Virus record (IMG/VR): IMGVR_UViG_3300031998_000003
Location: 128,001-192,000 of that record
Length of the DNA: 64,000 nucleotides
Strand: one strand, 5' to 3'
DNA from: a virus
Taxonomy: Duplodnaviria > Caudoviricetes
Below are positions 44,524 through 63,133 of the stretch, piece after piece. Below the pieces are notes generated by a model. The model was not told the DNA's origin and searched no databases. It worked only from the letters and a program-made list of their open reading frames with translations. The position numbers and the translations under genes are program-made. How positions within the stretch are numbered: position 1 is the first letter of the stretch; every line of letters begins with the position of its first letter.

Positions 44524-44541
44524 AAGCAAATACATAATGAT

Positions 44542-44740
44542 AATCCCTGCAGGAATGAGGGTACAGGTGTAGGCCACCACCTTCATCTTCCAATGGAATC
44601 ACTGGTATTGAGCTCACCGTGAGATCCATTGGAGGATATGACTCATTCCACATGGATTGCTCTCCCGTCCTTCTGGCTTTTCAAGAGTCATTTTCAAGAT
44701 TCCTTTCGGTTTGTGCGGTGGGGCTTTCGCCCCACCAATC
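44542..44740 (+). ncRNA. Structured ncRNA candidate 1 (long hairpin plus anti-RBS tail)
   Basis: Nested stems 44542-46/44654-58, 44552-59/44642-49 and 44586-97/44625-36; begins at +1 of TACA-N6-TA; ends at hairpin 44717-44736. Confidence 0.6.
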
Positions 44741-44763
44741 AAATTCTTCTTTAACGGTTTAAT

Positions 44764-44960
44764 AATCCGGGGTGTTCTGGTCAACTATGTTGACACCTCT
44801 CTCGTTCAGGGAGTACGTGCCTCCCTGTGCCGCGTGCGGGCGCGGCGGCCTCCGCTTTAACGCCATGTGTGATGTTCCTCCTAAACATACGCGCATAATA
44901 CACCATTCGGCACCCCGGATTTCATATATACAGTGTGGGGCTTCGGCCCCACACTGTGTC
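44764..44960 (+). ncRNA. Structured ncRNA candidate 2 (closed multi-stem RNA with a CCUCCU loop)
   Basis: Closing stem AATCCGGGGTGTT/GGCACCCCGGATT; at least four internal hairpins; G.U pairs favour the plus strand; begins at +1 of AACG-N6-TA; terminator hairpin at 44931-44956. Confidence 0.7.
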
Positions 44961-45002
44961 TTTGATTGCCGAAAAGCACCCCTACTCAGAATTATTTTTT
45001 TT

Positions 45003-47153
45003 TTAGAATGAACCATTAATATCTACAAACCACGATGGAGAGAATCCTTCCTGAGCAGTCAATGAGACTGGTGCACGTTCCTGTTGAGTACGATATTGTT
45101 TGTTATAGTCCATTGGAGAATAACCATATTCATCAACACCGTGTTCTCTGAAATATCCCATCGGATCTTGTGAGATCGTGTCATGTAGGAGCTGCTCTTC
45201 ATATGGTGCAGGTACATCTGGAAGGACCATGTTGTTTACAACAGCTTCAGTGATGTCATCCACGTATTTCTCAATAGCAGCTGTCGCACCTTGGAATGTA
45301 CTTTTTTCTTTAATGATTCCAAAACGCTCAATATGATCACCATAGTACCAAACAAAGATAGCATGATTGTATGCCATGACCATGTCATCATGGAAACCCT
45401 CTGCAGCCTCAATCTTACCAGTCTTTGAGCGTACAAGATTCGTGATATCCTTGGACAAATACTTCGATGTTAGTAAATGTCTATAGTCCTTCACATGAAC
45501 CTTCAACAGATCGAACATGCTGGTTCTGACAGACGGTGTGACATATGTGCCGATATATCCTTTTTCTTTTGAACGACGCTTCATAACTTCTTCTGGAGTT
45601 TCCTTCATGATTGCGTTCTTAGAAATATCCAATCTCGGATCATGATAGAATCTATATTCAATCTGGGTTTCCTGGATTAGATCGACGATTGCCTTACCGA
45701 TAGAATTTGTTTCAACACAGAAGATACCCTTTGGGCACAACTTTGCAATCTCTAGAATAATCCGCATCAGATCAGTTGGTCCGATGAATGGGGAGATTAG
45801 CTCACCGACAACCTGCATTGTATATGGATGAACGATGCAAATCGCTGTATTGTCTCCATTACCACCGGCAGCAACGTCAATACCAATCAGATATGGGATT
45901 GTTGTGTCGAAATACGGTGTAGATGAGTTGATGTCCGGAATCAGGATATCATGTTTATAGACATATAGATGAACCTTCTTCAGCAGAAAGATATCGTAGT
46001 CTGGTTCTCTGACATTCTGAACAATGTAGTCAATATCTTCCTGACGGAACAGTACTGACTTCGAACCACGGTATCTCTGAAGAAGAACACCTCGACGATA
46101 CTCATCCAGTTTATCAAGACGCACTGCTTCATTATATTGTGCTCTTAACCAAGCTTCGTCTTTTCGTAATTGCTTGTAATTGAATTCAATGTAGAGTGAC
46201 GTAACAGGTTGTGGATTACCATTCTCATCAATTGTATGCATACCTGCAAAATACTCTTTGAGCTCCTGCTCCGTGAAGTCATACAATTGTTCTGAGAATA
46301 CTGGTGTCATATCGATCATGTGCTGTGCCGTTCTACCAGTTTCTGTTTCCAAGTCACCAGGAGTCGAAAGCAGCATAACACATGTACGTCCACCTGTCTT
46401 CGCCGCGATTTCACGTCCAGAGATGATAGCAGGCATCGCACCTTCCATAACGGATGCTTGATACGGAATGTACTCCCACTCTTCAAGCATTGCTGCAAAT
46501 ACAGTGAAACCACGCATCTTGTCCTTCGCTTTGACAACAGAGTCTGCTTGAGATAGGATTGTGATGGATGTACCGTGTTCATCATATTTCAAAGACTTTG
46601 TTCCAGGAAGCTTCTGTCGACCATACCATGGATTCATATATGGTGGTAGTGCACAAATATAATCACGCAACATTTCAGCAGATTCCAAGCAACGGTCTTG
46701 TCGAATATGCATCATTGGAATTTCGATATTTTGATATTCAAATACAAACATGTACTCGAGTAATAGTGTACACCAGGTAGACTTATGCGTCTGACGAGGC
46801 TGACATAAGATGACATCGATACTATGGATGAAACACCATATGAGTGCTAGCGATGCACGTGATAGAATTGGTGGTAGTTTACCAGCACCACGAACAGGAA
46901 CTTTCGCAACTTCTCGGAAGAAATACCAAGGGTTCTGTTTACATTCAATACAGACACGGGCAATGTCTTCTTGTGAAATATTTTCATCATATGCATCAAT
47001 ATCTTGAACACCGAGTTCCGGATGTTTTACTTCTAGCATGAAATACCAGTTCTTGATACCGAGAACTTTCAACTCTTGTGCGGTTAACAAGAACGATTTG
47101 TTTCTTGTACCAAAATCATAGTACCGATTTCCGATTCGTCGGATATCGCTCAT
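45003..47153 (-). CDS. terL: Terminase large subunit
   Basis: ECKQNPWYFFRE, PRQTHKS (Walker A), LSTP, nuclease motifs IGIDVA and VETNSIG, HDDMVMAY. Confidence 0.92.
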   Translation of the reverse strand: MSDIRRIGNRYYDFGTRNKSFLLTAQELKVLGIKNWYFMLEVKHPELGVQDIDAYDENISQEDIARVCIECKQNPWYFFREVAKVPVRGAGKLPPILSRASLALIWCFIHSIDVILCQPRQTHKSTWCTLLLEYMFVFEYQNIEIPMMHIRQDRCLESAEMLRDYICALPPYMNPWYGRQKLPGTKSLKYDEHGTSITILSQADSVVKAKDKMRGFTVFAAMLEEWEYIPYQASVMEGAMPAIISGREIAAKTGGRTCVMLLSTPGDLETETGRTAQHMIDMTPVFSEQLYDFTEQELKEYFAGMHTIDENGNPQPVTSLYIEFNYKQLRKDEAWLRAQYNEAVRLDKLDEYRRGVLLQRYRGSKSVLFRQEDIDYIVQNVREPDYDIFLLKKVHLYVYKHDILIPDINSSTPYFDTTIPYLIGIDVAAGGNGDNTAICIVHPYTMQVVGELISPFIGPTDLMRIILEIAKLCPKGIFCVETNSIGKAIVDLIQETQIEYRFYHDPRLDISKNAIMKETPEEVMKRRSKEKGYIGTYVTPSVRTSMFDLLKVHVKDYRHLLTSKYLSKDITNLVRSKTGKIEAAEGFHDDMVMAYNHAIFVWYYGDHIERFGIIKEKSTFQGATAAIEKYVDDITEAVVNNMVLPDVPAPYEEQLLHDTISQDPMGYFREHGVDEYGYSPMDYNKQYRTQQERAPVSLTAQEGFSPSWFVDINGSF

Positions 47154-47275
47154 AACAAAGCTCCTTTCTGTCGAGATTGTTATATGATCTGTCCGTATAT
47201 AATATTACGAAAAAAAAATAATATACACGGGGGCCACGTGGCCCCCGTATACAAATTCTGTTTATCCGAGCCTGA

Positions 47276-49492
47276 TTAGGCATATTGCTTGAGTTGTTGC
47301 AGAATTGGTAAGATGCGTGTGAACTTCTCATACATGGACTCAACATATTCACGTTTACATCCTTGGAATAGATCGGTTTCATCAATCATTGAGAAGAATT
47401 CAGTCATATCAACAAACTGATGTGTTTTCTGATACTGCATGAAGTATGAGAACATAATCAGATGGAAGCGTAGTTCAGGAATAGAAACTTCGACTTCCAC
47501 GTTGTTGATCAAGACTTTATGAATCTCATCAATGAATCCAATCGTAGAATAGTTAAAGATGTCAGGTTTCAACTTGATGCCCATGAATTTGAGTGTGTTC
47601 TTCAGATTATCAAGTTGTGGGAACTGGTTGTACTTGGTCAGATCAAGACCCATATCATTCAGCTGGGACATCAGCATCGAATTCTCCATGTACTGGGAAC
47701 CACGATAATATGTCGTCAGCTTCGAGAACTCTTTGACACCAACACCCGCCAGGAAGTTTAGGCTATCGTATTCACCATACTTCACCGGATTGTCGGAATA
47801 GTGTCTCAGATTCTTTGTGAACTGATGCGTCTTAACAGGCTGATCGTACAATGTCGTTCTTCCTGTGGAAATGGCAGACAGCGCTTTTGACGGTTCTTGT
47901 TTCAAGACCCATGTGTACTGGAATCCAACAGGATATTCACCATCGATCTTTACCCAACGATGATGGAGCTTCGTAAAGATCTTATACGGCTTCATGATAT
48001 CAGGATATTTATCGTATGCTTCAAGCAACGCGTCGCGCACACATACTTTGTTGAACGGTTCAATCTGAATGAAGATTCCGTGATCCATAATATCCTGGAA
48101 CACGGTGTTCGGCATTTCCTTGTACACGCGCATAATTTCAGATCCTTCATCCGGTGCAAAGATTGAAACGAAATCGCATACACACGTCATAATTTCGTCT
48201 TTCGTTGCGAGTTTCTCTTTCCACAGATGTTGGATGTGTTGATACATACGATCCTGCATGAATGTCATGGATCCTTCATATGTAGCAAATGCAATGATTC
48301 TGTTCGGCACTGCCAAAGCATTTGCCAACATGTGAATCGGGCGGCCATCGTCAGTCTTTGGCATTTCATCAGTCGGAATGATTTTCGAAATAACGGACTT
48401 GTTTCCGTAACGTCCAACCACCTTCTGACCAACTGCGATGCGCATAGGTTGTAACATTGTGAACTTGATGATGGTATCGACGATGTATTCCTTTGTAACC
48501 CATGCTGAACCGTTCAGATACTTTTCAGCCTGATGATAAATATCCAGCAGAGATGTATCATCTTGGTTCGGGTCCGTAATGATCGTCGAAATGTAAGAGA
48601 AGATATCCGTATACCACTGACGAATTTGTGTTAGATATCGATTGAACTGTGCATCCTCCACCTCAACGTTTGTAAAGATATCGATGTCCACAACAGTACC
48701 ATGTGAGAAATACTTTGTATCGTTCACATGTGGAATCGATGCTTCAGCAAATGTCGAAACATAAGAATTCTCACGAATCGAACACAGCACGTCATTCTGA
48801 ACGTCCTCACCAATATCGGGGAAAGGCTTGTATTCACCGTTCTTGCCGTATCGGTTTAACAGATATGACTTCTTGGATACATTGACGGTTACGATGTCGA
48901 CCATGTCATATTCCAAAGCCTTGGCAGCGTCTTCTGATATCACAAGAGAGTCTTCGGTCAGATCAGGATGTACAGCATATGCCATACGGATATTGCATCC
49001 AGCGCAATAGTTGTCATCGACATATGAAGACGACTGTGCAATCGAAGAACCCTTCGGAAGCACATCACCTTCTTTGATTCCACGGATGTTGTCCTTCATC
49101 CGAAAACCATATCGTTCAACAAGATTGACAGCTGGCTTGTAAATCTTGCACAAGTATTTCCCAGTCTCCAGATTCTTGAAGATATACGCAATCGGAGAAT
49201 ATGGGGAATCTTTAAACTTCACGAATTTCTTCATGAGTTTATAATCCGCTGTTGCACGGACGTCCCAAGATGAACGTTTACCGAATTCATTTTCAGCACC
49301 GGTAAACATCATCGGGAATTCAGGATTCCGGACAACGACACGTTGGGATGTATGTTTTACCATCATTCCGCCACGTGTCGTTGATATCTTTTCCGGAAAA
49401 CCGAGTGCGGACATACCAGTCAATGATAACGGGTTTACTTCCGCACAACGCCGTTCAATATCAGCGGCATTGTTCATGATTTGTCTGGGCAT
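47276..49492 (-). CDS. Multisubunit RNA polymerase beta C-terminal subunit (non-virion type)
   Basis: EDSLVIS, GQKVVGRYGNKSVISKIIP..MP..DG, KQEPSKALSAISTG, KYGEYD. Confidence 0.92.
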   Translation of the reverse strand: MPRQIMNNAADIERRCAEVNPLSLTGMSALGFPEKISTTRGGMMVKHTSQRVVVRNPEFPMMFTGAENEFGKRSSWDVRATADYKLMKKFVKFKDSPYSPIAYIFKNLETGKYLCKIYKPAVNLVERYGFRMKDNIRGIKEGDVLPKGSSIAQSSSYVDDNYCAGCNIRMAYAVHPDLTEDSLVISEDAAKALEYDMVDIVTVNVSKKSYLLNRYGKNGEYKPFPDIGEDVQNDVLCSIRENSYVSTFAEASIPHVNDTKYFSHGTVVDIDIFTNVEVEDAQFNRYLTQIRQWYTDIFSYISTIITDPNQDDTSLLDIYHQAEKYLNGSAWVTKEYIVDTIIKFTMLQPMRIAVGQKVVGRYGNKSVISKIIPTDEMPKTDDGRPIHMLANALAVPNRIIAFATYEGSMTFMQDRMYQHIQHLWKEKLATKDEIMTCVCDFVSIFAPDEGSEIMRVYKEMPNTVFQDIMDHGIFIQIEPFNKVCVRDALLEAYDKYPDIMKPYKIFTKLHHRWVKIDGEYPVGFQYTWVLKQEPSKALSAISTGRTTLYDQPVKTHQFTKNLRHYSDNPVKYGEYDSLNFLAGVGVKEFSKLTTYYRGSQYMENSMLMSQLNDMGLDLTKYNQFPQLDNLKNTLKFMGIKLKPDIFNYSTIGFIDEIHKVLINNVEVEVSIPELRFHLIMFSYFMQYQKTHQFVDMTEFFSMIDETDLFQGCKREYVESMYEKFTRILPILQQLKQYA

Positions 49493-49524
49493 AGCTGTAG
49501 ACCACCTTTCACGAAATTGTCTTA

Positions 49525-50367
49525 TCAGATAACTGATAGTACCTCACATACATATTTTGTACATTCGGATTCTATACCGCGTTTGAAATCTGAGATTGCA
49601 AATGACAAGACGAGGTATATCGCCAAAATGATGTATATGTCAGTTTTTAAAACAATATTCGTGATCAATCGATTGATGAGATTATCAACATCGATATTAC
49701 AAGGGCTTTCATCTGACATGTAGAATTTGCAAACGCCATTGTAGTCCTGCTCAAAGAACATTCCGGCATCGTACTTTTCAACTTTATCCGGATCAATCTT
49801 GTTGCGTGACAAGAATGTTCGGATATCATTGATCGTGATGTTGTTTACAACGTACTCAATAGCAGGAGTCATGTTCGAGAACATCTGGAGCCGACATGTT
49901 GTAATCTCGTCGATGTATTTGAATAGACAGAAATAGATGTAGATATCATCAACAACATCCGCGAGTGTCACCTTGTTCTGATCAAGTGCCATGATGACTG
50001 GATGTGTTGGGTTCAGCGTGTTTCGAAGTTCATCCATTGTGACACGCTTTGCGATGCGTTCATAATCCGGAAGCTCATCGCGGTTCACAATGAATTCTCT
50101 TGTACGCTTTTTGTCAGTTTCATTGATTCTGATCGGAATTCTCTCTGGGACAGGAATGAAAGCATCGAGCGGGTTTGATTTCAATTCGATGTCCCATGTG
50201 AAATTCTTATAGTATTGCACATAATCATCACGGGAAAGAATTATGTGTTTACCATTGATCAGACCTGCAGCTTCAATGTATCCCTGGCATTGTGCCACGA
50301 GATACGTATGAATCTTTGATCGTTTGGAATTGATCTCATTGACCATTCCCTGCGGTAGTTTGAACAT
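49525..50367 (-). CDS. Hypothetical protein, 280 aa
   Basis: RBS AAGGAGAG; coupled to the upstream ORF. Confidence 0.75.
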   Translation of the reverse strand: MFKLPQGMVNEINSKRSKIHTYLVAQCQGYIEAAGLINGKHIILSRDDYVQYYKNFTWDIELKSNPLDAFIPVPERIPIRINETDKKRTREFIVNRDELPDYERIAKRVTMDELRNTLNPTHPVIMALDQNKVTLADVVDDIYIYFCLFKYIDEITTCRLQMFSNMTPAIEYVVNNITINDIRTFLSRNKIDPDKVEKYDAGMFFEQDYNGVCKFYMSDESPCNIDVDNLINRLITNIVLKTDIYIILAIYLVLSFAISDFKRGIESECTKYVCEVLSVI

Positions 50368-50552
50368 CAGAACTCTCCTTCCGGTATGTTTTCTTGTTGT
50401 CTGTTTTTGTTTTTCTCATTATAGTATTTCTCACGTAGTGGGCAATAATTGTCCACTACGTAAGGAAAGCCGTTTCTTTGTATATGAACAAAAATGAAGT
50501 CATTCAATCGAATGATCGTCGATTGAACTGAGATTGAAGATGATTGTATCAT
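50367..50552 (-). CDS. Small hypothetical protein
   Basis: ATG 50552 behind GAAAGGA. Confidence 0.55.
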   Translation of the reverse strand: MIQSSSISVQSTIIRLNDFIFVHIQRNGFPYVVDNYCPLREKYYNEKNKNRQQENIPEGEF

Positions 50553-50583
50553 AATTGTATTTCCTTTCAAATAGGATTACCCA

Positions 50584-50814
50584 TTAAGAAAGTTCATCAA
50601 CCATCTCATCAATTGCCGTGCTATCAAATGCTTGGCGTGCTTGTGCAATCGGATTCGAAGGTCCGTTGCTACTTGCAGCTGCCAATTGTTGTTGTTGCTG
50701 TTGATGTTCTTGCTTCTTCTGAAGCTTTCGGATTTCTCGAAGACGGTTTACGAATTTACGAGGCATTCGTAAGAGCATATCAATTGGGAGACATCTATTG
50801 AAGAGGTCTCCCAA
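50584..50814 (-). CDS. Small protein (T4 gp51-like), or a frameshift extension of 50820-52601
   Basis: LPIDMLLRMPRKF; weak start; the frame stays open upstream into the preceding gene. Confidence 0.5.
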   Translation of the reverse strand: MGDLFNRCLPIDMLLRMPRKFVNRLREIRKLQKKQEHQQQQQQLAAASSNGPSNPIAQARQAFDSTAIDEMVDELS

Positions 50815-50819
50815 CTCGA

Positions 50820-52601
50820 TCAGATCGACTCCATCTCTGTCAAGTTTATTTCGGTAGATGACAGCCTCCGAGAAAGCTGGAAAATCAGTGTTCCACCGAT
50901 ATCCGGAATCGGAATACGCTTCTCTTCACGACCACAAGCATCGCACTTGAAGTTCTCCAGATAGAAGTCCATCGGAGAGATGTTTTCAGCAGCAAGCTTG
51001 TTAACCAGTTGGAGGAGGATTGCAGCATCTCTCATGTCGAGGGATGTTGTAATGATCTTCTCAATATCATCCCAGTTGTCATAGCGATATTCAATGCCGT
51101 CGACAATCTTGGAGATTGCGGTAACGAACATCGCGTGTGCAAGCAGGTAAGAATATTCCGGATTGTTGTTGAGATAATCATCAATCTCTTCTTCACCGTT
51201 GAACATGTCACGATCTTCAGGCATGAATCTCTCACGCAACCGATCCATCAGCGGATAACGTCTGTTGATGAAATCATATGCTGACGGACGGTCATCGATC
51301 TCAACGATGTATCCGGTGTTCGGAAGCTTATAACGACGAATCGGGGAATTGAGCTTATTGAAGTGCTCAACTGCAGCCGTTCCAGGAGCGACAGCACCGG
51401 TCTTTTCCCATTCATACTTACCGATCAGCTCATCGTTAACGTGAATCAGTGTACGTGGATTGTACTTGATCTGATGTCTCTTTTCACACTTCGGGTTACC
51501 ACACTTGATCGTGATGGTTTCCTCTTCCTCAGAAGATGCAATCAGGATACCCCACATCAGCAGTTCACGGTCCATATACTTCGTCTTCTTCATGAAGTCT
51601 TCGAAGTCTTTGAAGTCACCGATAGAAACATTGGAAATGTGATCATAGATGATGCTCCACTGCTTCTTATCAGCATCAACACGACTTCCAGATGCAGGAG
51701 ACGAACCGAGCTGAATGAACTCGTAGTAGTTCAGCGGTTTCAACACGAGTCTGTATGCGGACAGCGGAAGTGTCAACGGCGTATCGAATACATCAGACTT
51801 GAACGGAGTGATGATACCATCACGTTGTGAGTTATTCACGATACGAGAACCTTGCAGTTCTTCACGTGTCACCTCAGTCACATAGATGTCAACACGATTG
51901 GTATGTGTCATTTCATTGACGACATTTTCATCAACATTAACCGTTACAGGAGTGCCACTTTCAACGTTGATATTGATTGTTGCCGGTTGATCCTTCGGAT
52001 TGGCCGGTTCTTCTTCCTGAGTAACTTCAGTTGCAGCCTGTGTAGCAGTGTCATTACTTGTATCCGGAGCAGTGTGACGCCAGCTCTTCAGAACAATATC
52101 CTCGAAATTCTGAGACGGTTCATCACCGCAGTAATAGTACTCCGACATCAGTTCGCCCATGACATGCATTCTGAAATCAGGGTCTTCATCTGTCGCGACC
52201 GGAATTTCACCAGATGTGATATGATTTTTCTGAAGGACTTTGTTGATCATGTTGGTAACGATCATCATGTTATTGCCCTGGAAGGCAATGTCCTGAGCTT
52301 GTGCTTCACGGTCATGCGGTTGCGGCGGCATGATCACACTCTTTGAAGCATTCTTCTTCTGAGCGAGCAATGCCTCATATTGTTGCTGACGCAGTTCTGC
52401 TTCCATACGCTCTTCTTCAGCCATCTCAAGTGCGAGATCATTTGTGCCATATTCATCTTCACCTTCAGTAGCAGCTTCCGGCGCTTCGGTGACGGTTTCT
52501 GCTTCAGGTTCTGAGAGAGGAGTGGGTTCCTCAGGTGTAACAATGTTTCCTTCACGACGAGAAATCAGAGCGTCGATCGGATCTACGAACTTGTCACTCA
52601 T
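50820..52601 (-). CDS. Baseplate hub assembly / tail chaperone-like protein (T4 gp26-like) with an acidic N-terminus
   Basis: LPLSAYRLVLKPL, CGNPKC and CDACG; RBS AAAGGAG. Confidence 0.55.
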   Translation of the reverse strand: MSDKFVDPIDALISRREGNIVTPEEPTPLSEPEAETVTEAPEAATEGEDEYGTNDLALEMAEEERMEAELRQQQYEALLAQKKNASKSVIMPPQPHDREAQAQDIAFQGNNMMIVTNMINKVLQKNHITSGEIPVATDEDPDFRMHVMGELMSEYYYCGDEPSQNFEDIVLKSWRHTAPDTSNDTATQAATEVTQEEEPANPKDQPATININVESGTPVTVNVDENVVNEMTHTNRVDIYVTEVTREELQGSRIVNNSQRDGIITPFKSDVFDTPLTLPLSAYRLVLKPLNYYEFIQLGSSPASGSRVDADKKQWSIIYDHISNVSIGDFKDFEDFMKKTKYMDRELLMWGILIASSEEEETITIKCGNPKCEKRHQIKYNPRTLIHVNDELIGKYEWEKTGAVAPGTAAVEHFNKLNSPIRRYKLPNTGYIVEIDDRPSAYDFINRRYPLMDRLRERFMPEDRDMFNGEEEIDDYLNNNPEYSYLLAHAMFVTAISKIVDGIEYRYDNWDDIEKIITTSLDMRDAAILLQLVNKLAAENISPMDFYLENFKCDACGREEKRIPIPDIGGTLIFQLSRRLSSTEINLTEMESI

Positions 52602-53431: not shown

Positions 53432-53435
53432 ATTT

Positions 53436-54530: not shown

Positions 54531-55637
54531 TTAGCGTTGATCCCATGCAGGAGGTGCTGCATACGGATTTGTGATATCCGTAGAGGTTCCATTTGCATCG
54601 GTATAGATCTTGGAGTGATCGCTTGCAGACAGCGTGTGAGATGCCATCTGATCGCGACGCACTGCCTGACCCTGTGCCTGGAAGATCGGAGCATTGCCGA
54701 CAGCAGACTGAACTGCATCGAGGTTCGGGCGATTTCCACCATTGAACATAGCAGTATCGATTTTGGTCGAGTTGGCGTCGGTGAAGAATGCATCGCCAGC
54801 ACCCGGGTTGAGGTTGAGCGAGTTGCCGAAGATGGCGAACTGCTGAACGTATCTGGATGCGAGGTCGTTGACATATGCCGACTGGATGAATTGGCAGCTG
54901 AAGGACAGAGTAACACTCTGAATCTGTGAACCACCAGTTGGGTTAGAGTTGAAGATCTCGTAACCGATCTTGTTCTGCGGGATGCAGCCGAGAGCCATTG
55001 CAGCAGCCTCAACACGTGCACCAGAACGATCCAGTGCAATGACGAGGAATTCTGCAACTTCCCATGCAGGAGACGGTTCGAGTGCTGCGTCGAATGCGAC
55101 ACCTGTCGGTGGCAGGAAGATACGACGTGCAACATTGTTCTCATCAATGCTACCAGCCACAAGACCCTGATAGTGTGTCAAACCGGTGATCTCATCAGAG
55201 ATACCATCAATCCACATGTTGTGGAAGTTGGCGATTGGACGGCCGACAAGTTCAGGAACTGTGATCTGAATTGACTGAGAATTGTTGGTATTCTGCACTG
55301 TCGGAATGTTGATACTTCTTGCAGCGAAACCACCCTGAAGCGGTTGTGATGCAAGCGAGTGATCGCCGAACTGGCACTGAATACCCGTGTTGTAGTATTC
55401 GATGACCTTCTTATACGTTGCGAACTCACGGTTCGTATACGCATCATTTCCATCACCACCGAAGTAGTGCATCAGGAAATACGGTCCGCGATACATAACA
55501 CAGATAACACGGTTTGTTGTCTCGGGGTTGAGACTCCGGAGTGTGTGAATATCCGGAGTCAGTCCGCCGAGCATACCAGTGTATTGTCTCAAGTCGCCGT
55601 TGTATTCACGGAGACCAGTTTGCAGACTAATTGCCAT
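54531..55637 (-). CDS. Tail tube protein
   Basis: Directly downstream of the sheath; ELVGRPI..WIDGISDEITGLTHY pattern of phiKZ/AR9-like tubes. Confidence 0.75.
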   Translation of the reverse strand: MAISLQTGLREYNGDLRQYTGMLGGLTPDIHTLRSLNPETTNRVICVMYRGPYFLMHYFGGDGNDAYTNREFATYKKVIEYYNTGIQCQFGDHSLASQPLQGGFAARSINIPTVQNTNNSQSIQITVPELVGRPIANFHNMWIDGISDEITGLTHYQGLVAGSIDENNVARRIFLPPTGVAFDAALEPSPAWEVAEFLVIALDRSGARVEAAAMALGCIPQNKIGYEIFNSNPTGGSQIQSVTLSFSCQFIQSAYVNDLASRYVQQFAIFGNSLNLNPGAGDAFFTDANSTKIDTAMFNGGNRPNLDAVQSAVGNAPIFQAQGQAVRRDQMASHTLSASDHSKIYTDANGTSTDITNPYAAPPAWDQR

Positions 55638-55663
55638 AGCTATTTCTCTCCTTTCTTAAAAAA

Positions 55664-58600
55664 TTAAGATTCCGTACGTCTGTTGACGTTGACGATGATC
55701 GGAACACGGAGGATGAGGCCGCGGAATGTGACGTTCACGATACAGATGACAATGTCACCGCCATCGATGTTGATGTCACGCTTGAACTCGAAGGTGAGTG
55801 TAGAAACGAGGTTGCCGACCCAGTTACCGAACATGGTGGTGACTTCGTCCTGAATCGTCTTGAGAACAGCGTCGTCGTCATACTCAAACAGCTTTTCATC
55901 CAGCTTGTTCTGCAGGAGATATACGAGCTGTGACAGCGTACGCATATTGGATTCCTGGAGCAGATCGGAAGTCGAGGACTCACGATACAGTGTTCTCTGA
56001 GAACGACGAGTGAGGTTGCCGTTGACATCGATAACCCATGCATTACCACCGGAGTTGTAGAGCAGCTCGCGGAGATCCCAGTCGGTTGCATCGATATCCG
56101 GGAAGTAAGACACGAACTCGTCGGAACGAATTGTGGTGTACTTGCCAGTGAACGGCTTGTTGACAGATGTGGACTTGCAGTGACCAATCAGATAGTCAAC
56201 CAGACGCTTTGCATAGGTGTATGCGATACCATCTGCAGAAGATACATAGCCACCGATATCCCAAGATGCGTTCGGGTTGTCGAAACGCTTCTCGAAAGAG
56301 GTGTTAATGAGCTTTGCTGTGACAGCATCTGTGACACCAGCATCCAGGTGCAGAGACAGACCGGAGCCAGGACCGATCGGACGATGGTCTTCCGGAATAC
56401 CCTGATAGATGCGGTGAATCATCAGATCATACATCGCCTGCTTGACGTCGATATCGTCATCAGCTCTCAGGTTTGCAGTCAAGGACTGATCATACATGAC
56501 GGATTCCTTTTCATCCTCAGTGAAGATGGTGGAAGCCTGGATCTTATCCTGAACGCTGTATGTCAGATATGGCAGAATTGTCTGTCCAACGATGGTGTTT
56601 GTACCGCCGTCAAAGAGATACTTTGCAGGCACACGGTTCGGTGAAAGAATACGAGGATCAATCTCGCCTCTGTATGCCTTGACAAGCAGTGCAGAGTAGA
56701 GCCACTTGAACTCGACATCTGACAAACTCTTGTCATCGAAGAAGCCGGTGCTACCATCTTCCAGCTTAATACCGCCACCCTTTGAAGTCATCTCATTGGT
56801 GCCGTATACAGCGGAGTAGTAGTTTGCCGGAACTTGGATGTACTCTTCCTTGGTGATTCTCCAGAAGGAACCCTGAGTTGAAGAGATGATATAACGATCA
56901 ATGCTTTCCGGTGTCGCAGTCTCATCCTGTGCAGGAACGAGGCTGTGCGCCTTGATGCAGAGTGTCAAAGCAGCACCAGATGCAAGCGTAACAGGAACCG
57001 GCTTATGGACAACCTTTGCAAGCGGTTCACCGGAAGAACCGGTACCCTTGTCATAGTATGTCTTGCCAGCAGTGAAGGTTTCATCTGCAGTCAGGCTGTA
57101 CACATGCGTTGAAGCATTGAGTTCATACAGACCGAGCTCATGAGGATTCGTTTCACCAGCCTGCTTGTTGTGAGCGGTGTACTTTGCAGTCGTGTTGGAG
57201 TACACATCTGCGCCGTTACCGATCAGAACGAATCTGAACTGTCCACCCGTCTGAGGAATGATGTCATCACCAGCATCGAGTGTGAGCGTGATACCATCCA
57301 GATAGCCGTTGGTACCATCGGAAGTAGCATCCTCATATGTGAAGCTGTCATGAACACCGCCAGGAACAACTGCTGTGAGGACGTTGCTACCTGCGGTGGT
57401 GGTGAACACAGTTTCAGCACCGTTTGAAGAAACGTATGCGAGGCCGATTGTTGCACCATTCGGGTAGTCAGCTTCCGGAACATTGACCTGATACTTGCCG
57501 ATTTCCTGGTTATTGCTGTTCTTGATGCTGATGTCCTGCTTCTTATGAACATTAGCTCCGGAGCCAGTTGTTGTAACAGGGCCGAAGACAATTGTCTTAG
57601 CAGTATTGAGGTTGAATACCTGATTATCAGTATCGAACTTGTAACCAGCGATAGCAGACTCATCAAGAGTGATGATGTCATACTCAGTTCCCATCAGATC
57701 AGACTTTTCACTGTCGAGAATCATGACAGGAGGCTTGCCGATCGCAGTCTTGTTACCAACAACTGCAGTACGACCGGTTGTTCCGACATTGTCAGAAGTG
57801 ATGTCGTAGTTGTTGACACGTACTGCATTATTGAAGTCATTGTCCTTCAGAATGACAGTAGCACCCGGCTGCAGCCATGCGAAGTCAGTTGCCTCAGTTG
57901 CAATCACATTACCGGAACCGGCAGAAGGCGGTGCCCAGTTAAGATATGCATAGAGATCATTCTTCGGATACTTCCAGACATAGAATGTCCAGTAGGTAGC
58001 CCAGATGTCATCAGACTGCTTTGCAAGATCCTTGATACCAGTAGTGATGCTTGCCGCAGAGATCGGATTATTCGAAACATAGAAGATGTCGAAGTCGCCG
58101 GTCTGGATGCCGCCCTCATCAACTTGCATAACAGCGACGGTTTCACCAGGGTTGACCTTGCCGTCTCTGAGAGCCTTACGAAGCAGCGTACCGAATTCAG
58201 TCGGTGCATTTGTCGACGGAACAAAGATCGTTGCGATCGTAGAAGTTGATGTACTCGCATTGGTTGTTGAGCCATCATCCGGCCACGATTTTGTCTGCGA
58301 ATCGTAGGTGATCAGGCCAGACAAGCTCGTGAGGGAGTTCATCTTGATCGTTGACACAGCGCCCGTATACTGGTTCACAGAAGCAACGACGTAGAAGTAC
58401 GGGTTCATGTTGCTTGCAAGGCCGGAATACAGATAGACATCACCGAGATGAACAGTATCGCCTTCGTCGGTAATACCTGCGGTGGATGTCTCAAGCAGTT
58501 GCTTGTTGATCGTCTGATATGCCTTGGCCTTAGCCTGCTCAGGAGTCAGAGACTCATCGTCTTCCGTCTTCAGAACATAAATTCTGTTGGTCTGCGGGAG

Positions 58601-59650
58601 CTCCTCGATATCAGAAGATCTCATGTCGACCTGGAAGAATGGCAGCTTATAGCCGTCATCAGTACCGTTGTAGATGTAATTACCGAAGATCACATCAAAT
58701 GTATTGATGTTGAGCATGATGTTGACCTTGTTAATGTAGTCCGGTGTCATGACTCTGTTGTTCGGAATTGTCACACCTTCCTCGATCATCTCACTGAGGT
58801 GCTGACGGTAGTCGTTGTAGAGCTCTTCGATTGCAGGCTCGTTCACATATGGAACAACAATCGAGGAACCTTCAACACGGCGCTTAATCTGTACGTTAAC
58901 AGATTCGATTGCGTCCGGACGAGAAGCATTCTCAGAGTTGATCAGAGAAGCCGAGAACTGTTCGATTGTCGCATCGGTCGTTGTATCGATCGTAGAGAAC
59001 ATGTAACGAACGTTCGGCGGGTTCTTGCCCTGATTGGTCTTATCGATGACAGTTGCAAACTTGTTGTAGACTGCACCGCGGCCAGCAGAGATATTGACGA
59101 TGAATGCACGCTTCTTCCATCTTTCACCATTCGGATCGGTGGAAGGCGGATCGGATGAAGCATTCGCATACGACTTGACAATTGCAGCATACAGCCGATC
59201 ACGGTTCGCATAGTTCGCCAGTGCACGATCCTGTGCAAAGCGATCTGTGTTGTAGCGGACGTGGATCATGTTATCAGTGCTATCTTTACGCCATTCAATG
59301 GTGATGATAGAATAAGCATAGGTTGCATCATCCGGTGTCACACGCAGAAGCTTTACAGGGCCACCCTGGCTGATCAATGATACCGGATAAGTCGCTGACT
59401 GACCGAACTTCTTGATGTCGCCAGAGCTCAGAGCTCTCAGGCCGTACGCAACGTTCAGAACATCCGAACGCTTGACATCGATCACGCGTCTGTCTTCACC
59501 CATCGGGAGACCTGTTACGACGATCGCGCCGTACATAGACGGTTCATCAGCAATGACGACCGGGAGATCACCAGTATACGAAGAATTGTCCACAATGTGC
59601 ACGAGCGTATGCGGAAATGGGTACTTCAGACCAAACTTCGTCTCAATCAT
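55664..59650 (-). CDS. Tail sheath protein, enlarged (1328 aa)
   Basis: N-terminal YPFPHT..IVDNS and LLRVTPDDATYA; C-terminal SQRTLY..SDLLQESNMRTL..VTFRGL; strong codon bias. Confidence 0.85.
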   Translation of the reverse strand: MIETKFGLKYPFPHTLVHIVDNSSYTGDLPVVIADEPSMYGAIVVTGLPMGEDRRVIDVKRSDVLNVAYGLRALSSGDIKKFGQSATYPVSLISQGGPVKLLRVTPDDATYAYSIITIEWRKDSTDNMIHVRYNTDRFAQDRALANYANRDRLYAAIVKSYANASSDPPSTDPNGERWKKRAFIVNISAGRGAVYNKFATVIDKTNQGKNPPNVRYMFSTIDTTTDATIEQFSASLINSENASRPDAIESVNVQIKRRVEGSSIVVPYVNEPAIEELYNDYRQHLSEMIEEGVTIPNNRVMTPDYINKVNIMLNINTFDVIFGNYIYNGTDDGYKLPFFQVDMRSSDIEELPQTNRIYVLKTEDDESLTPEQAKAKAYQTINKQLLETSTAGITDEGDTVHLGDVYLYSGLASNMNPYFYVVASVNQYTGAVSTIKMNSLTSLSGLITYDSQTKSWPDDGSTTNASTSTSTIATIFVPSTNAPTEFGTLLRKALRDGKVNPGETVAVMQVDEGGIQTGDFDIFYVSNNPISAASITTGIKDLAKQSDDIWATYWTFYVWKYPKNDLYAYLNWAPPSAGSGNVIATEATDFAWLQPGATVILKDNDFNNAVRVNNYDITSDNVGTTGRTAVVGNKTAIGKPPVMILDSEKSDLMGTEYDIITLDESAIAGYKFDTDNQVFNLNTAKTIVFGPVTTTGSGANVHKKQDISIKNSNNQEIGKYQVNVPEADYPNGATIGLAYVSSNGAETVFTTTAGSNVLTAVVPGGVHDSFTYEDATSDGTNGYLDGITLTLDAGDDIIPQTGGQFRFVLIGNGADVYSNTTAKYTAHNKQAGETNPHELGLYELNASTHVYSLTADETFTAGKTYYDKGTGSSGEPLAKVVHKPVPVTLASGAALTLCIKAHSLVPAQDETATPESIDRYIISSTQGSFWRITKEEYIQVPANYYSAVYGTNEMTSKGGGIKLEDGSTGFFDDKSLSDVEFKWLYSALLVKAYRGEIDPRILSPNRVPAKYLFDGGTNTIVGQTILPYLTYSVQDKIQASTIFTEDEKESVMYDQSLTANLRADDDIDVKQAMYDLMIHRIYQGIPEDHRPIGPGSGLSLHLDAGVTDAVTAKLINTSFEKRFDNPNASWDIGGYVSSADGIAYTYAKRLVDYLIGHCKSTSVNKPFTGKYTTIRSDEFVSYFPDIDATDWDLRELLYNSGGNAWVIDVNGNLTRRSQRTLYRESSTSDLLQESNMRTLSQLVYLLQNKLDEKLFEYDDDAVLKTIQDEVTTMFGNWVGNLVSTLTFEFKRDINIDGGDIVICIVNVTFRGLILRVPIIVNVNRRTES

Positions 59651-59814
59651 TGGATATACTCTCCTTTTCTATAGATTTTTGGTTTGGTTCCTTATGAGAT
59701 AAAACGGGCATGATGAATCGCAAATCATGTGGTTAAACCTCACAATTATCTTTTTGTGTGAAGCTCGATTAAACCGGCGAAATTGGGTATGTGGGGGCCG
59801 AAGCCCCCACACAA

Positions 59815-60804
59815 TCACACTGAATCATTTACCGAATCGGTATCTGTATTAATCTCAGATTTGTAGATGACCGGATACTTGTTTTCAAGCTCATCTAGAG
59901 CAACTTTCGACTCAAGATCAACTTCTTTGATTGCGGCGTTTGGTGGTGGATAATCCGGCATTATCTCATTATTTCCATTGAGCGTAACGTATTCTCTGTC
60001 GTTGGGATCATCACCAATCATGACATGAATTTTCGGATTGTCCTTTTCAAATTTGACGGTTTCAGGGACTTCGTCAACTGATACGACATTTTCCAGCATA
60101 TTGGAAGCATCAGCAATACTCGTTTCTGGGTATTGAGAGAGCGGCGGTGACGGGACACTCGAGGGATTTGGCATGTTAAAGATATTATCCACGATTGACT
60201 TTCCAACATCGAATGCGGATGCACTTCTTCCAGGTGTTGCCGTTGCAGGACCACCACCAGCAACAGTTTGTTGTTGTTTGATGCGAAGCTCGGTGATGTT
60301 CTTCTTGATAGCCGCCTGCTCCTTTATAATAGAAAGCATTGCACTTCTAGCACTGGTTGCAGCTTGCATGGCAGCAATCGCATCTTCGTTCAGTCCGTAA
60401 GCACCTTTGTCAGTGTACATCTCCATGGCTTTTCTTTCAAAGACTTTGATCAATTTGGCCTGATCAGCAGCAAGTGTTTTCAGAGAAGCGATGTCAGACG
60501 AGAATATACGGTTCGGATCGATCTTTTCAGGACCGAACATTTCCTGGTTGTAGGTGACATCCAGTGTCGTTGTCGGTGTGTTCCACAGACCACCGACAAA
60601 CGGGTTGATGAATCCGTCCATCGGAATATACTGTGGTATTGCGGAAAACTCATGGAATCTTTCCATGAATGTATTCGGGCTGTATGGTTCATCAGTCCAA
60701 TTACTCGTCTGCTGAGGTTCAACACCGTATGCTGAGGAATCCAGACTTTCGAATGGGCAACTGTTATTCATTATTCCAATTGCATCAAACATTGAAGAAC
60801 TCAT
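59815..60804 (-). CDS. Hypothetical protein with coiled coil
   Basis: Start moved to ATG 60804 behind GAAAGGAG; terminator hairpin at 59790-59811. Confidence 0.75.
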   Translation of the reverse strand: MSSSMFDAIGIMNNSCPFESLDSSAYGVEPQQTSNWTDEPYSPNTFMERFHEFSAIPQYIPMDGFINPFVGGLWNTPTTTLDVTYNQEMFGPEKIDPNRIFSSDIASLKTLAADQAKLIKVFERKAMEMYTDKGAYGLNEDAIAAMQAATSARSAMLSIIKEQAAIKKNITELRIKQQQTVAGGGPATATPGRSASAFDVGKSIVDNIFNMPNPSSVPSPPLSQYPETSIADASNMLENVVSVDEVPETVKFEKDNPKIHVMIGDDPNDREYVTLNGNNEIMPDYPPPNAAIKEVDLESKVALDELENKYPVIYKSEINTDTDSVNDSV

Positions 60805-60886
60805 TTCAGCATCTCCTTTCAAAAAAAATAATTTGAATGTTTCCATCCATACTTAAATGTCATTTGCTTCTGATCTTATTATGGTA

Positions 60887-62392
60887 TCATTCCATTTTTG
60901 TCAGACCGTATAGACCATTCAAACATTCAATTTCAATCGGAAATGCTGCATCCATATTTGGTTTTACGCAATATGCTTTTGAATACATCAGCTTCTCAGC
61001 TTGTGCATTTGCTTCTTCGGACCAGATACCTGTGCTCTTGACAGTATCACCGTCATAGTCACCACCAATGTTCTGTAGACGAGAATTTGCCATATTGATG
61101 ACATCAACAAATGACGTGGAAACTTTCATATGTGATGCTTCGGGATTGATGTCAGGATATGTCCGATACACTTCACCCTGAAACTGCACTGGAATTGTGG
61201 TGTTTGTTGATAACACATGAATCTTAGAGAAAAATGCACCAAGATGGTGACCGATCGGATAACGAACTGTGTACATATGTCTGTCAGCAGCGACTGTAGA
61301 ACGATATCCACATAGATAGATCACATCCGTCAACGTTAGTGGACGTGAGATTGTCTCATTCGTTTTCATGTTTAATGCACTGAAAATAATCGGTTTCTTA
61401 TTTTCCGGATCCAGATATAGGATGCGGAATCTGGATCCAGGGTTTCTCATGAAGATCTGAATCAGATCCGAGATCATCTTGTCATCGTAGATATTTTCGA
61501 TATCAGTGCGGTTTACTTCATCCGGATTTGGATGAATGGATACGATGTTATCATATGACAAAAATTGCTTCATGTGGAATTTCACAAATGGTTGGAATGC
61601 AGAGACGATTGTCATCAGCGGATAACCTGTACGAAAAATACCAACCTCTGGAGTATTGGATCTGTATGATGGAGCTGATATAACATTTCTGACAGTTCCA
61701 ACAGTATTCTTTGCCAACAGATTCTTCTGGAAGTAACCATTCTTTGTGCCAACAAATTTGTTGATGTAAGAGTATAGTTCGATCAACGTATCTTGAATTT
61801 GGTTGTTGACACGATGAACTGATGCCGTTGTGTGTGATGTAACACTCTTGAATCCAAGCAGTTTCATGTACAAAGAATTCAGCTCGGACTTTACCTGCTT
61901 ACCATTCTTCATACCACTTGGACGAAATGCCGGTGGTAGCACAAGAACTTTGTCAACAAACAACAACCGTCTTGGACACTTGATCAAAATATCGAGGGAC
62001 GCATCATTACGTGTATTTAGATTTTTCTTAATGTCGATTTCTTCCCAGATATTGTATAGATCACGGAACCCGCTGTATTTGCCGTCTTCAGCTTCAATCA
62101 GTTTTCCATCAATCAGATTGCATCTGATTTCACCATATGCCAACTTACGGATGATACCACCTGACCTGGTGATGATGTTTTTGGCAACATCAGGATTGAA
62201 CACATGAATCGGAAGTTTGATATAACCGCAGCGATACTTCTGCTCTTCTTCAGTCTGACCAAAGATTTCTTCGGAAAAAAGACCATTCGGGTTATATTGA
62301 TTCGGCGTTGAAAACATGACGGCCGATGTGACTTCCTTCAGATTGTTAACCCTGATATCTTGATCGATATCATATAGACCAACAATACGCAT
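60887..62392 (-). CDS. Multisubunit RNA polymerase beta-prime N-terminal catalytic subunit (virion type, phiKZ gp180-like)
   Basis: GLFSEEIFG, GYIKL, VLPPAFRP, RNVISAP, RYP, GGDYDGD; ends shortly after the catalytic motif. Confidence 0.92.
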   Translation of the reverse strand: MRIVGLYDIDQDIRVNNLKEVTSAVMFSTPNQYNPNGLFSEEIFGQTEEEQKYRCGYIKLPIHVFNPDVAKNIITRSGGIIRKLAYGEIRCNLIDGKLIEAEDGKYSGFRDLYNIWEEIDIKKNLNTRNDASLDILIKCPRRLLFVDKVLVLPPAFRPSGMKNGKQVKSELNSLYMKLLGFKSVTSHTTASVHRVNNQIQDTLIELYSYINKFVGTKNGYFQKNLLAKNTVGTVRNVISAPSYRSNTPEVGIFRTGYPLMTIVSAFQPFVKFHMKQFLSYDNIVSIHPNPDEVNRTDIENIYDDKMISDLIQIFMRNPGSRFRILYLDPENKKPIIFSALNMKTNETISRPLTLTDVIYLCGYRSTVAADRHMYTVRYPIGHHLGAFFSKIHVLSTNTTIPVQFQGEVYRTYPDINPEASHMKVSTSFVDVINMANSRLQNIGGDYDGDTVKSTGIWSEEANAQAEKLMYSKAYCVKPNMDAAFPIEIECLNGLYGLTKME

Positions 62393-62465
62393 ATTTCATA
62401 CCTCCTTAAGTGTATAAAGTTACAGAACCGTTTGATCGATGGTGGGGATTTACCCCACCATCGTA

Positions 62466-62711
62466 TCACTTATGGCGCTCGCGCCACCGATCAATGTATT
62501 CAGAAATATCCATATCATTTCTCAGGGAGTACCAGCTAATCAAAAGCATACCAATAAGGCCCGGCCAAATGCCGAATGAATCAATGATATGGTTATTTGT
62601 AAATAGAACAATGAACAGATCTGCGATGATGTAAGCTATCGATATAATTGCGCCGAACCAGCTTACAACGAATCCTACATTCTTCCAGTCGATATGTCGT
62701 TTTGTCTTCAT
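62466..62711 (-). CDS. Small two-pass membrane protein
   Basis: Two hydrophobic helices; ATG 62711 behind AAGGAG; early-type motif at 62845-62863. Confidence 0.65.
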   Translation of the reverse strand: MKTKRHIDWKNVGFVVSWFGAIISIAYIIADLFIVLFTNNHIIDSFGIWPGLIGMLLISWYSLRNDMDISEYIDRWRERHK

Positions 62712-62874
62712 GTAAAACACTCCTTGCTCTGTAAATCATAAACTTGTATTTCAATCGATTTACATATTCACCCATTGAGTACCACCTTCTTTCAATGCAC
62801 GGGTTCATTGAAAAATTGGAATATTCAGGCCCAACCCCTTCATATTCAAAATAATGATATACATTCATAAATAT

Positions 62875-63026
62875 AAAAAAAAATATGTGCGGGCCGAAGC
62901 CCGCACGCAAAAGAATTCTTGGAGGCGTCACATTTCTGTGACAACCCATGGACAACGGAAAACGTAGAAAACATACGTTGGGAATTCTTCACACGGCAAG
63001 TGAAGAAAGGTTCATTTCATGAACTT
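62875..63026 (-). ncRNA. Structured ncRNA candidate 3 (four short hairpins with C/U-rich linkers)
   Basis: Begins at +1 of GACA-N6-TA (63037-63026); ends at the UUCG terminator 62887-62906 plus U tract; no internal ORF with an RBS. Confidence 0.5.
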
Positions 63027-63133
63027 ACAAATTTGTCGTCATCGTATGTATATTATTAAATCGGATAGGGAAGGTGTATAACTTCTAACCGCCTGAACTA
63101 ACTTTTACAAACCATCTATAGGAGGATACAGCA

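Follow-up and report, generated by a model that had tools for sequence, protein, structure and literature searches.

Two intergenic segments, here called units 2 and 3, in a 64,000-nt stretch of viral DNA (the window) are probably independent genes for structured non-coding RNAs (ncRNAs) of an AR9-like clade of rumen phages, and the RNA of unit 2 plausibly pairs with translation start regions. The window comprises bases 128001-192000 of the IMG/VR virus record IMGVR_UViG_3300031998_000003, a genome represented by one contig of 248,669 bp with 42% GC. An RNA polymerase beta-like protein encoded at 47276-49492 (minus strand) is 29% identical to that of the Bacillus phages PBS1/AR9 and more weakly related to those of other jumbo phages, and the same DNA is present in bovine and sheep gut metagenomes from many studies. 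Therefore, the genome is assigned to an uncultivated rumen jumbo phage of the AR9/PBS1 type.

A sequence-only reading of the window had described three units, each expressed from a late promoter as a small RNA (sRNA) and each carrying the complement of a Shine-Dalgarno (SD) sequence and of a start codon (anti-SD plus anti-AUG), and had regarded them as one family. Units 1 and 2 occupy a 479-nt gap on the plus strand, between the end of a helicase gene at 44523 and the end of a convergent gene for a 716-aa protein at 45003. Unit 3 lies on the minus strand of a divergent gap between the start of a minus-strand gene at 62711 and that of a gyrB-like gene at 63134. The three complementary strings could be confirmed: the complement of 44689-44707 is GAAAGGAATCTTGAAAATG, that of 44864-44882 is AGGAGGAACATCACACATG, and GAAAGGTTCATTTCATG lies on the plus strand at 63005-63021. 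The common layout was also found as described, with NAC[AG]-N6-TA (TACA at 44531, AACG at 44753 and GACA at 63037 on the minus strand) followed by a first stem 0-3 nt from the predicted +1 and a GC hairpin at the end of each unit. The proposal that the units are standalone genes on the given strands was substantiated for units 2 and 3 by late-type motifs and compensatory changes; unit 1, for which no homologue was found beyond near-identical strains, stays a candidate.

The RNA of unit 2 and its homologues

Related loci were collected by two routes, with the helicase as bait in IMG/VR and by exact-protein look-ups of helicase relatives from a large protein collection. More than 260 helicase relatives occur in public assemblies, which corresponds to a large clade of uncultivated rumen phages. 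A homologue of unit 2 was found behind the helicase gene at helicase identities of at least 76% (L001, L002, L003, L004, L216, L220, L221, L222, L224 and L227), in most relatives beginning within 10-20 nt of the helicase stop codon. At identities of 71% or less, the helicase gene ended with a plain terminator hairpin and no unit 2. Therefore, unit 2 appears to be an added module and not a required part of the helicase message. The elements of unit 2 in the window are as follows.

44753..44764, plus strand: late-type promoter AACG-GTTTAA-TA, predicted +1 at A44764
44764..44960, plus strand: unit 2 RNA of ~195 nt, as predicted from the covariance model and the conserved stems
44764-44774 with 44911-44921, plus strand: closing stem P1
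44780-44794, plus strand: P2, in this phage only
44807-44827, plus strand: P3
44829-44846, plus strand: P4, with the loop GCGGG in nine of ten homologues (GCGAG in L227)
44865-44896, plus strand: P5, with CCUCC(U) in the loop
44877..44881, plus strand: conserved anti-SD CCUCC in the P5 loop (UUCCUCCU), invariant in all ten homologues
44862..44888, plus strand: P5 arm, putative seed (GCCAUGUGUGAUGUUCCUCCUAAACAU), complementary to SD, spacer and AUG of strong phage start regions
44894..44909, plus strand: single-stranded 16-nt motif CAUAAUACACCAUUCG between P5 and the 3' strand of P1
44930-44957, plus strand: terminator-like hairpin, a GC hairpin with T-rich sequence behind it

The homologues share a layout in which the late promoter is followed by P1, a stem of 11-13 bp joining the RNA ends, by a CU-rich single strand and by the hairpins P3, P4 and P5. 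A covariance model was built from ten sequences and matched 11 relatives with 69.6-149.5 bits, ten homologues of these eleven matches being analyzed by hand. Exactly one strong match was obtained in each of three complete genomes, and the remaining matches were terminator hairpins with at most 36 bits. In the alignment fitted to the model, which somewhat favours pairing, 90.5% of the cells were paired compared with 83.4 ± 1.2% after shuffling, and the covariation score was 0.338 compared with 0.211; in both cases, none of 500 shuffles reached the observed value. When the partners were moved by 1-3 columns, pairing dropped to 32-52%. The counts for P1 were identical on a plain MAFFT alignment, and the paired changes of this stem (GG/CC, AA/UU, AG/CU, CCGA/UCGG and CCAG/CUGG) can be read directly from its variants.

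P1 variant: 5' strand CCGGGGUG, 3' strand CACCCCGG
P1 variant: 5' strand CCGGAAUG, 3' strand CAUUCCGG
P1 variant: 5' strand CCGGAGUG, 3' strand CACUCCGG
P1 variant: 5' strand CCGAAGUG, 3' strand CACUUCGG
P1 variant: 5' strand CCAGAAUG, 3' strand CAUUCUGG

MAFFT combined with RNAalifold misaligned the inner stems when whole units were used; therefore, the stems P3-P5 (unit 2) and P2 (unit 3) were read sequence by sequence and not from column counts. Read in this way, the stems of P3, P4 and P5 vary among the homologues and the loop sequences GCGGG and CCUCC are kept. The motif CAUAAUACACCAUUCG is identical or nearly so in nine of the ten homologues, diverged in L227, and predicted to be mostly unpaired (0.35-0.97). 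Judged by this directly observed conservation and covariation, unit 2 is a real, conserved and folded ncRNA that is present in a single copy.

Late promoters of phage AR9 have the consensus AACA-N6-TA/G (non-template strand), and transcription starts at its last base (PMC5312081). In the present genome, the loose form NAC[AG]-N6-TA occurs at 563 sites, or 2.3 per kb over both strands, and therefore the motif alone proves nothing. The strict form AACG-N6-TAA was found at 12 sites; seven of them fall into intergenic DNA, which makes up 6.5% of the genome, and six precede a gene start by 25-42 nt. This enrichment and placement upstream of genes argue for a real promoter-like signal, and unit 2 has the strict form. 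Directly 5' of the closing stem, AACG, AACA or CACG-N6-TA is present in all ten homologues, and the predicted +1 is the first paired base. At the other end of the unit, the hairpin resembles those of the form GGGGC-loop-GCCCC that follow many genes of this phage by 4-20 nt and represent its usual gene-end signal. Outside the window, at genome positions 107095 and 122987 (window -20905 and -5013), AACG/AACA-N6-TA is followed at once by a strong hairpin and no open reading frame (ORF), and these sites are possibly further tiny promoter-plus-hairpin units. The tRNA-like sequences at genome positions 115790 and 117042 also have late-type motifs upstream; a tRNA search of the window itself found none.

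The comparison with Rfam that the sequence-only reading had suggested gave no family of Rfam 15 at gathering score anywhere in the window, and at E-values up to 10 both intergenic regions returned chance-level matches only. Neither region had a match in a DNA search against 50,697 phage records. The loose pattern TTCCTCCT-N8-28-ACACCATTCG in viral and metagenome contigs gave nearly only chance hits among the matches listed, and a second sequence pattern yielded no further homologues.

Behind the helicase gene of L006 (3632-3770) and of L007, where the helicase is 61% identical, a shorter RNA-like unit of ~100 nt was observed with a closing stem UUUCGGGG/CUUCCCGAAA, a CCUCCU-bearing loop, a second hairpin and a terminator. 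It scored just 17 bits with the unit 2 model and is either an analogue or a very diverged relative of unit 2. The helicase gene itself (42403-44523) contains an in-frame insertion of ~223 codons at window 42786-43458. This insertion is missing in relatives and in the near strains X3 and X4, the contigs of which lack 673 nt here and have 4 nt in their place; in X7, 915 other letters stand at this position. In many relatives, the same gene has a LAGLIDADG_3 (PF14528) insertion, and Pfam gave no family inside the ~223 inserted residues of this phage; the insertion is probably an intein or another mobile insertion. On the other side of unit 2, the stretch up to the gene for the 716-aa protein (44972-44995) is a hot spot of variable cargo. 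The near strains X3, X4 and X7 depart from the window exactly there, and one to several additional genes were found downstream of unit 2 in L002-L004 and L220-L224, with the 716-aa gene inverted in L003 and L224.

The P5 loop and translation start regions

In all ten homologues, the CCUCC of unit 2 is predicted to be unpaired with a probability of 0.75-1.00. Pairing of a 27-nt segment was scored as its mean duplex energy over its ten best start regions in the genome. The P5 arm of unit 2 reached -27.3 kcal/mol compared with -17.1 ± 2.4 for random genomic 27-mers, none of 160 being as good. With CCUCC kept and the flanks shuffled, -20.9 ± 1.3 kcal/mol was obtained, and none of 150 controls matched the arm in this genome (G0); when two related genomes were scored with their own arms, 5 of 150 (G1) and 0 of 150 (G2) controls were as good. 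The predicted exposure of the loop and this statistical complementarity are direct observations. As the arm beats the controls, it mirrors the SD sequence and the spacer, and the complementarity extends to the (C)AUGGC start in this phage. Of the two complements that had been proposed for every unit, the anti-SD is present throughout the unit 2 homologues and the anti-AUG (CAU) in only about half of them.

The complement of the P5 arm is AGGAGGAACATCACACATGG. Unrelated genes of this phage share ribosome binding site (RBS) cassettes that are identical over 15-17 nt, namely AAGGAGGAACACACAATG three times (window 13104-13120 and 20159-20175, genome 233175) and AGGAGGAACATCCAA(A)TG twice (window 19480-19496 and 33991-34008), and the orthologues of the cassette genes in two related genomes have AGGAGGAAA(A/C) in place. 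Behind AGGAGG at gene starts, AACA is the commonest 4-mer in this genome and AAAA the commonest in G1 and G2, with the following counts.

G0 (this phage): AACA at seven sites (six genes and the antisense of unit 2 itself), AAAA at one; arm GUUCCUCC
G1: AACA at none, AAAA at six; own unit 2 arm UUUCCUCC
G2: AACA at none, AAAA at 11; own unit 2 arm UUUCCUCC

The switch between AACA and AAAA was seen in four orthologous gene pairs and tracks the unit 2 arm in the three genomes; the lineages of L216 and L227 have an AACA-type arm, as in this phage. These sequences give a hint of co-evolution between the RBS flank and the unit 2 arm. The minus-strand gene that starts at 28669 has a 5' leader of ~120 nt (window 28669-28800), which lies behind an early-type promoter block and holds CGUUGUGUGUUCCU, complementary to the AGGAACACACAAUG cassette of the genes at 13118 and 20173.

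In this genome, the predicted pairing of unit 2 is best at the start region of a CHAP+VanY lysin (genome 221397, -31.5 kcal/mol), where the predicted pairing runs from the SD sequence to the AUG with four wobble pairs. The gene (genome 221397-223016; L262 98-1714) encodes a 539-aa cell-wall hydrolase of CHAP + VanY (M15B-type) composition, and in G1 and G2, the related lysins have 318 aa and their start regions are unrelated. Pfam and PHROGs gave no family matches for five candidate target proteins.

Taken together, the following mechanism is proposed. Units 2 and 3 would each be driven by the phage's own late-type promoter, that of the non-virion RNA polymerase, and would end at their GC hairpins. 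The RNA of unit 2 is predicted to fold into a multi-branch structure with paired first and last nucleotides and to show the invariant, 16S-rRNA-like CCUCCU in a hairpin loop, and the 5' side of P5 would provide the complement of the A-rich spacer, here also of the AUG region, of the strongest RBSs of the phage. The P5 arm could then pair with the SD and start regions of a set of mRNAs, comprising phage sites of the AGGAGGAA type and possibly host mRNAs too, and this pairing would occlude or tune ribosome access late in infection, like the Firmicutes sRNAs with C-rich loops. An anti-SD mechanism is plausible for unit 2 only. A bolder version, which we consider less likely than not, is that unit 2 might mimic the anti-SD tail of the ribosome; the RNA would be abundant late in infection, and 16S rRNA would have to compete with its exposed CCUCCU loop and tuned flanks for the strongest RBSs.

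Several points weigh against this mechanism. Transcription, the start site, the 5' and 3' ends and the strand are all deduced from sequence, as are the targets, the pairing in vivo and the direction of its effect. Among the sequencing runs listed as containing this DNA, none is recorded as RNA, and a presumed RNA run (X24) gave four short contigs over parts of a 4.8-kb stretch and none over the units, which carries no information on their transcription. In units 1 and 2, the hairpin has no adjacent U tract, the nearest T-rich sequence being interrupted and 5-15 nt away. For the best-conserved motif, CAUAAUACACCAUUCG, no complement was found close to a start codon anywhere in this genome, and the motif gave no signal of complementarity to translation initiation regions (86 of 160 random 27-mers were equally good), which hints at a function other than RBS pairing. 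In a duplex-energy swap test, the own unit 2 was no better than a foreign one, and therefore the apparent co-evolution comes down to one nucleotide position and in effect to one event. The lysin was rejected as a conserved target, its relatives ranking 82nd of 283 (G1) and 132nd of 221 (G2), and no conserved specific target was found for unit 2. The U-rich flank beside CCUCC fits the A-rich spacers of any strong RBS, so that part of the signal is generic, and the antisense of the arm resembles a true RBS, as a real or former gene start would give.

Unit 3 and unit 1

Homologues of unit 3 were found at the same divergent position in four further genomes (G001, G002, G003 and G004), giving five sequences with the window; with the gyrB-like protein as bait, no relatives were returned among viral contigs. 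The elements in this gap are listed below.

63026..63037, minus strand: late-type promoter GACA-AATTTG-TA, predicted +1 at A63026
62877..63026, minus strand: unit 3 RNA of ~150 nt, as predicted from five homologues
63024-63010, minus strand: P1, GUUCAU-GAA-AUGAAC
63007-63000 with 62992-62985, minus strand: P2
minus strand: further hairpin GUCACA/UGUGAC
62906-62887, minus strand: terminator hairpin, followed by a T run on the RNA strand
63044..63063, plus strand: block resembling an early promoter, ATGTATATTAT-N6-G, oriented towards the gyrB-like gene at 63134

In the five homologues, GACA-N6-TAA lies at a constant distance from the first hairpin, and this GACA variant of the promoter is also present 26 nt before a gene at genome position 23202. 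The first hairpin, GUUCAU-loop-AUGAAC, is invariant and begins two bases past the predicted +1. The stem of P2 is different in all five sequences and pairs in each of them (UCUUCAC/GUGAAGA, GUCUACACA/UGUGUUAGAC, AAUUCAUU/AAUGAAUU, AUCGUC/GACGAU and AGAUUGUCUUUU/AAAAGACAAUCU), five being too few for a formal test; its loop keeps GCCR, and the motif UCCAUUGU lies downstream of it. In the relatives, another AACG-N6-TA promoter, that of the downstream gene, stands between the unit 3 terminator and the RBS of this gene, and unit 3 is therefore regarded as a separate unit. Its minus-strand terminator with the T run has no coding gene upstream of it.

The anti-RBS proposed for unit 3 (63005..63021, GAAAGG-N8-ATG on the plus strand) did not hold up. 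Its ATG is part of the invariant P1 palindrome and the remainder is CUUUC, and GAAAGG (CUUUC) is absent from the four other homologues. Against start regions the segment scored at background, with 47 of 160 random 27-mers as good, and an excess of antisense k-mers of unit 3 in the genome was due to terminator-loop repeats. The anti-RBS motifs of units 1 and 3 had predicted unpaired probabilities of 0.39-0.40. From the homologues, it is concluded that unit 3 is a real conserved ncRNA, different from unit 2 and with no conserved anti-RBS.

The block at 63044-63063 is close to the early consensus of AR9, AAATATATATTAT-N6-G (PMC5312081), and includes a TGTATAAT-like element. It has no indels across the window, L194, L189 and L197 and is also recognisable in G002. 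Other copies of such an AT-rich block, ATATATATTAT-N6-G and often ...TATTAATATGAATA, fit the same consensus and were observed at window 28790-28815 (minus strand) and in L002 (5636-5665), L003 (5820-5850), L004 (5640-5670) and L220 (4645-4675). They stand behind the unit 2 terminator in most relatives and before early-looking genes in this phage.

For unit 1, two elements can be given.

44531..44542, plus strand: candidate promoter TACA-TAATGA-TA, a loose motif match only, predicted +1 at A44542
44542..44745, plus strand: candidate RNA of ~200 nt with an end hairpin at 44717-44736

The folding z-score of unit 1 was about -4 on both strands and therefore does not tell the strand; a 13-bp hairpin contains one G.U pair that forms only on the plus strand. 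No homologue was found in G001, G002 or G004, and the unit is kept only in the near-identical strains X3, X4 and X7. In L003, a different RNA-like unit with its own closing stem and CCUCC stands at the unit 1 position and does not align with unit 1. As unit 2 directly follows the helicase gene in most relatives, unit 1 is regarded as an insertion of this lineage. Its segment 44685-44711 was among the top 3% of random 27-mers against start regions (5 of 160 as good), so that the proposed anti-RBS is marginal here. The element AUUCCUUUC complements the GAAAGGAAT RBS type of four genes and is half paired in predictions (unpaired probability 0.40), and the antisense k-mers of unit 1 occurred in the genome at chance level. 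Unit 1 may be a third RNA or only the 3' untranslated region (UTR) of the helicase gene.

The claim that units 1-3 form one homologous family was rejected: the covariance model of unit 2, which is single-copy, detected neither unit 1 nor unit 3. By this comparison, the three units share a layout and not an ancestry.

Alternative explanations and known systems

RBS-plus-ATG strings can be the real starts of tiny proteins, here of 35, 25 and 20 aa, encoded opposite the proposed RNAs. GAAAGG or AGGAGG followed by N8-10-ATG was found at 84 sites of the genome, 57 of which are at the starts of ORFs of at least 60 aa, with 27 sites genome-wide as background (0.054 per kb per strand). Three strings within ~550 nt are therefore far above background and not due to chance, and since such strings are usually true starts, the opposite-strand mini-ORFs are a serious rival. 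The sequence-only reading had named background frequency of the anti-RBS segments as a sign against its proposal; the strings were clearly more frequent, and only the pairing of unit 3 fell at background. For the 35-aa ORF (44759..44866, minus strand, behind AGGAGG-N10-ATG), an automatic gene caller placed a 36-aa gene at the same site in L216, L218 and L219, and an ATG lies 6-10 nt past AGGAGG in five of the ten unit 2 homologues. In the other five (L001, L002, L004, L224 and L227), however, there is no ATG, GTG or TTG at the right spacing, and where the ORF exists the peptides are unrelated and differ in length. Three near strains have a 1-nt insertion behind 44813 that shifts the frame yet, in the RNA, is confined to the loop of P3. 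G.U pairs occur in several stems and would become A.C on the opposite strand, and the promoters and T-rich tails are oriented to the RNA strand. This ORF was rejected as a gene, in agreement with the strand chosen in the sequence-only reading. The 25-aa ORF (44614..44691, minus strand, behind GAAAGGA-N9-ATG) is not supported as a gene either; in X7, a 1-nt insertion behind 44683 shifts its frame at codon 3 (a single contig with a depth of 7.6, hence weak evidence), and the near-strain indels of both ORFs sit in loops or linkers of the RNAs. The 20-aa ORF on the plus strand (63019-63081) is also not supported, as its SD sequence is unique to this phage among the homologues and its length ranges from 20 to more than 40 aa. 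The apparent frame (MNL..C....YII...) coincides with the indel-free early promoter block, and differences among the homologues gather in spacers and not in third codon positions; the block accounts for the seemingly coding conservation upstream of unit 3. Tiny proteins are thus a highly improbable explanation of the strings.

It is also quite improbable that the units are cis elements, with units 1 and 2 as a 3' UTR or stability element of the helicase message and unit 3 as a leader, attenuator or insulator between divergent promoters. Units 1 and 2 do follow the helicase stop directly on the same strand with no terminator between, at the short distance given above for unit 2 in most relatives, and unit 3 lies upstream of the next minus-strand gene in the same direction. 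The strict promoter motif is nevertheless kept immediately 5' of the closing stem of unit 2, every homologue has its predicted +1 on the first base of this stem, the helicase gene of distant relatives manages with a plain terminator hairpin, and the gene after unit 3 has a promoter of its own in the relatives. A different function of a real structured RNA has more in its favour, although we consider it unlikely: the CCUCCU loop and the 16-nt motif of unit 2 would bind a protein or act as a decoy, the candidates being an RNA-binding protein of the host or the phage, a defence sensor or, as for 6S RNA, RNA polymerase, and the likeness to an RBS complement would be incidental. It would fit the absence of a start-codon complement and of an anti-initiation-region signal for CAUAAUACACCAUUCG, the most strongly conserved element, the constant GCGGG (nine of ten) and CCUCC loops on variable stems, as expected of recognition sites, the missing conserved target and own-RNA advantage, and a closed multi-branch fold that is more elaborate than a seed-bearing sRNA requires. 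Against it, not only the CCUCC core but also its flanks fit start regions better than shuffled flanks in three genomes, no gene for a partner protein is linked to the locus, whose neighbours vary among relatives, and no Rfam family of protein-binding RNAs matched. Independent RNA genes, with pairing of unit 2 to start regions, remain the preferred reading.

Among known RNAs, the closest parallel is found in Firmicutes sRNAs with C-rich loops, such as RsaE/RoxS, the RNAIII hairpins, FsrA, LhrC and SprX, which is phage- or island-borne in Staphylococcus aureus. These are likewise standalone RNAs with their own promoter and terminator and a C/U-rich, SD-complementary loop that is predicted to occlude the ribosome. 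Unit 2, however, has no sequence or Rfam relation to them, carries the full 16S-like CCUCCU where they have UCCC or CCCC, and is multi-branched and closed by a long terminal stem. It also resides in a lytic-type jumbo phage behind a late promoter of a phage polymerase, and its best predicted targets are the phage's own genes. The loop UUCCUCCU has the same CCUCC core that ribosomes use on mRNAs at the 3' end of 16S rRNA, but the resemblance is limited to this short motif; unit 2 contains nothing else that resembles rRNA in sequence or structure and matched no rRNA family of Rfam.

In AR9, late units likewise have AACA-N6-TA/G with the last base as start and a short distance to downstream elements (PMC5312081, PMC5449584), and its early motif is recognisable in this phage and its relatives, whereas the fourth base of the late motif is mostly G here (AACG). 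The AR9 transcriptome paper describes antisense RNAs and one tRNA gene, and the terms 'noncoding', 'non-coding' and 'small RNA' were not found in its text (PMC5312081). The statement that nothing comparable is described in jumbo phages was too broad, as ncRNAs are reported for phiKZ and PA5oct (PMC13282480, PMC7318152, PMC8244752). According to the accessible portions of these reports, jumbo phages with their own polymerases or large genomes express ncRNAs with unassigned roles; those phages are unrelated in sequence to the present one, and no anti-SD loop, conserved fold or covariation support was found described in those portions. In the literature searched, no ncRNA was found described for AR9-like phages and no anti-SD RNA for jumbo phages, which does not prove that there are none.

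Units 2 and 3 are, by conservation and predicted structure, two new phage ncRNA families that are absent from Rfam and comparatively well supported. AR9-like and other jumbo phages take over transcription with two polymerases of their own, and RNA-level control in jumbo phages is, to our knowledge, almost unexplored. From these sequences we infer that a translational control layer may exist, as the sequence-only reading had proposed, to which, on the bolder reading, units 1 and 3 and additional structured RNAs of the genome might also belong. The AR9-type early and late promoter motifs reach distant relatives with 42% GC, which helps to annotate such metagenomic phages. If unit 2 pairs with RBSs, it would be a simple, testable case of a virulent phage tuning translation initiation by an sRNA, possibly with an effect on the timing of the lysin. 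If the anti-SD mimicry is true, unit 2 would be an RNA-level switch on which messages, those of the phage, e.g., the lysin, or those of the host, are translated late in infection.

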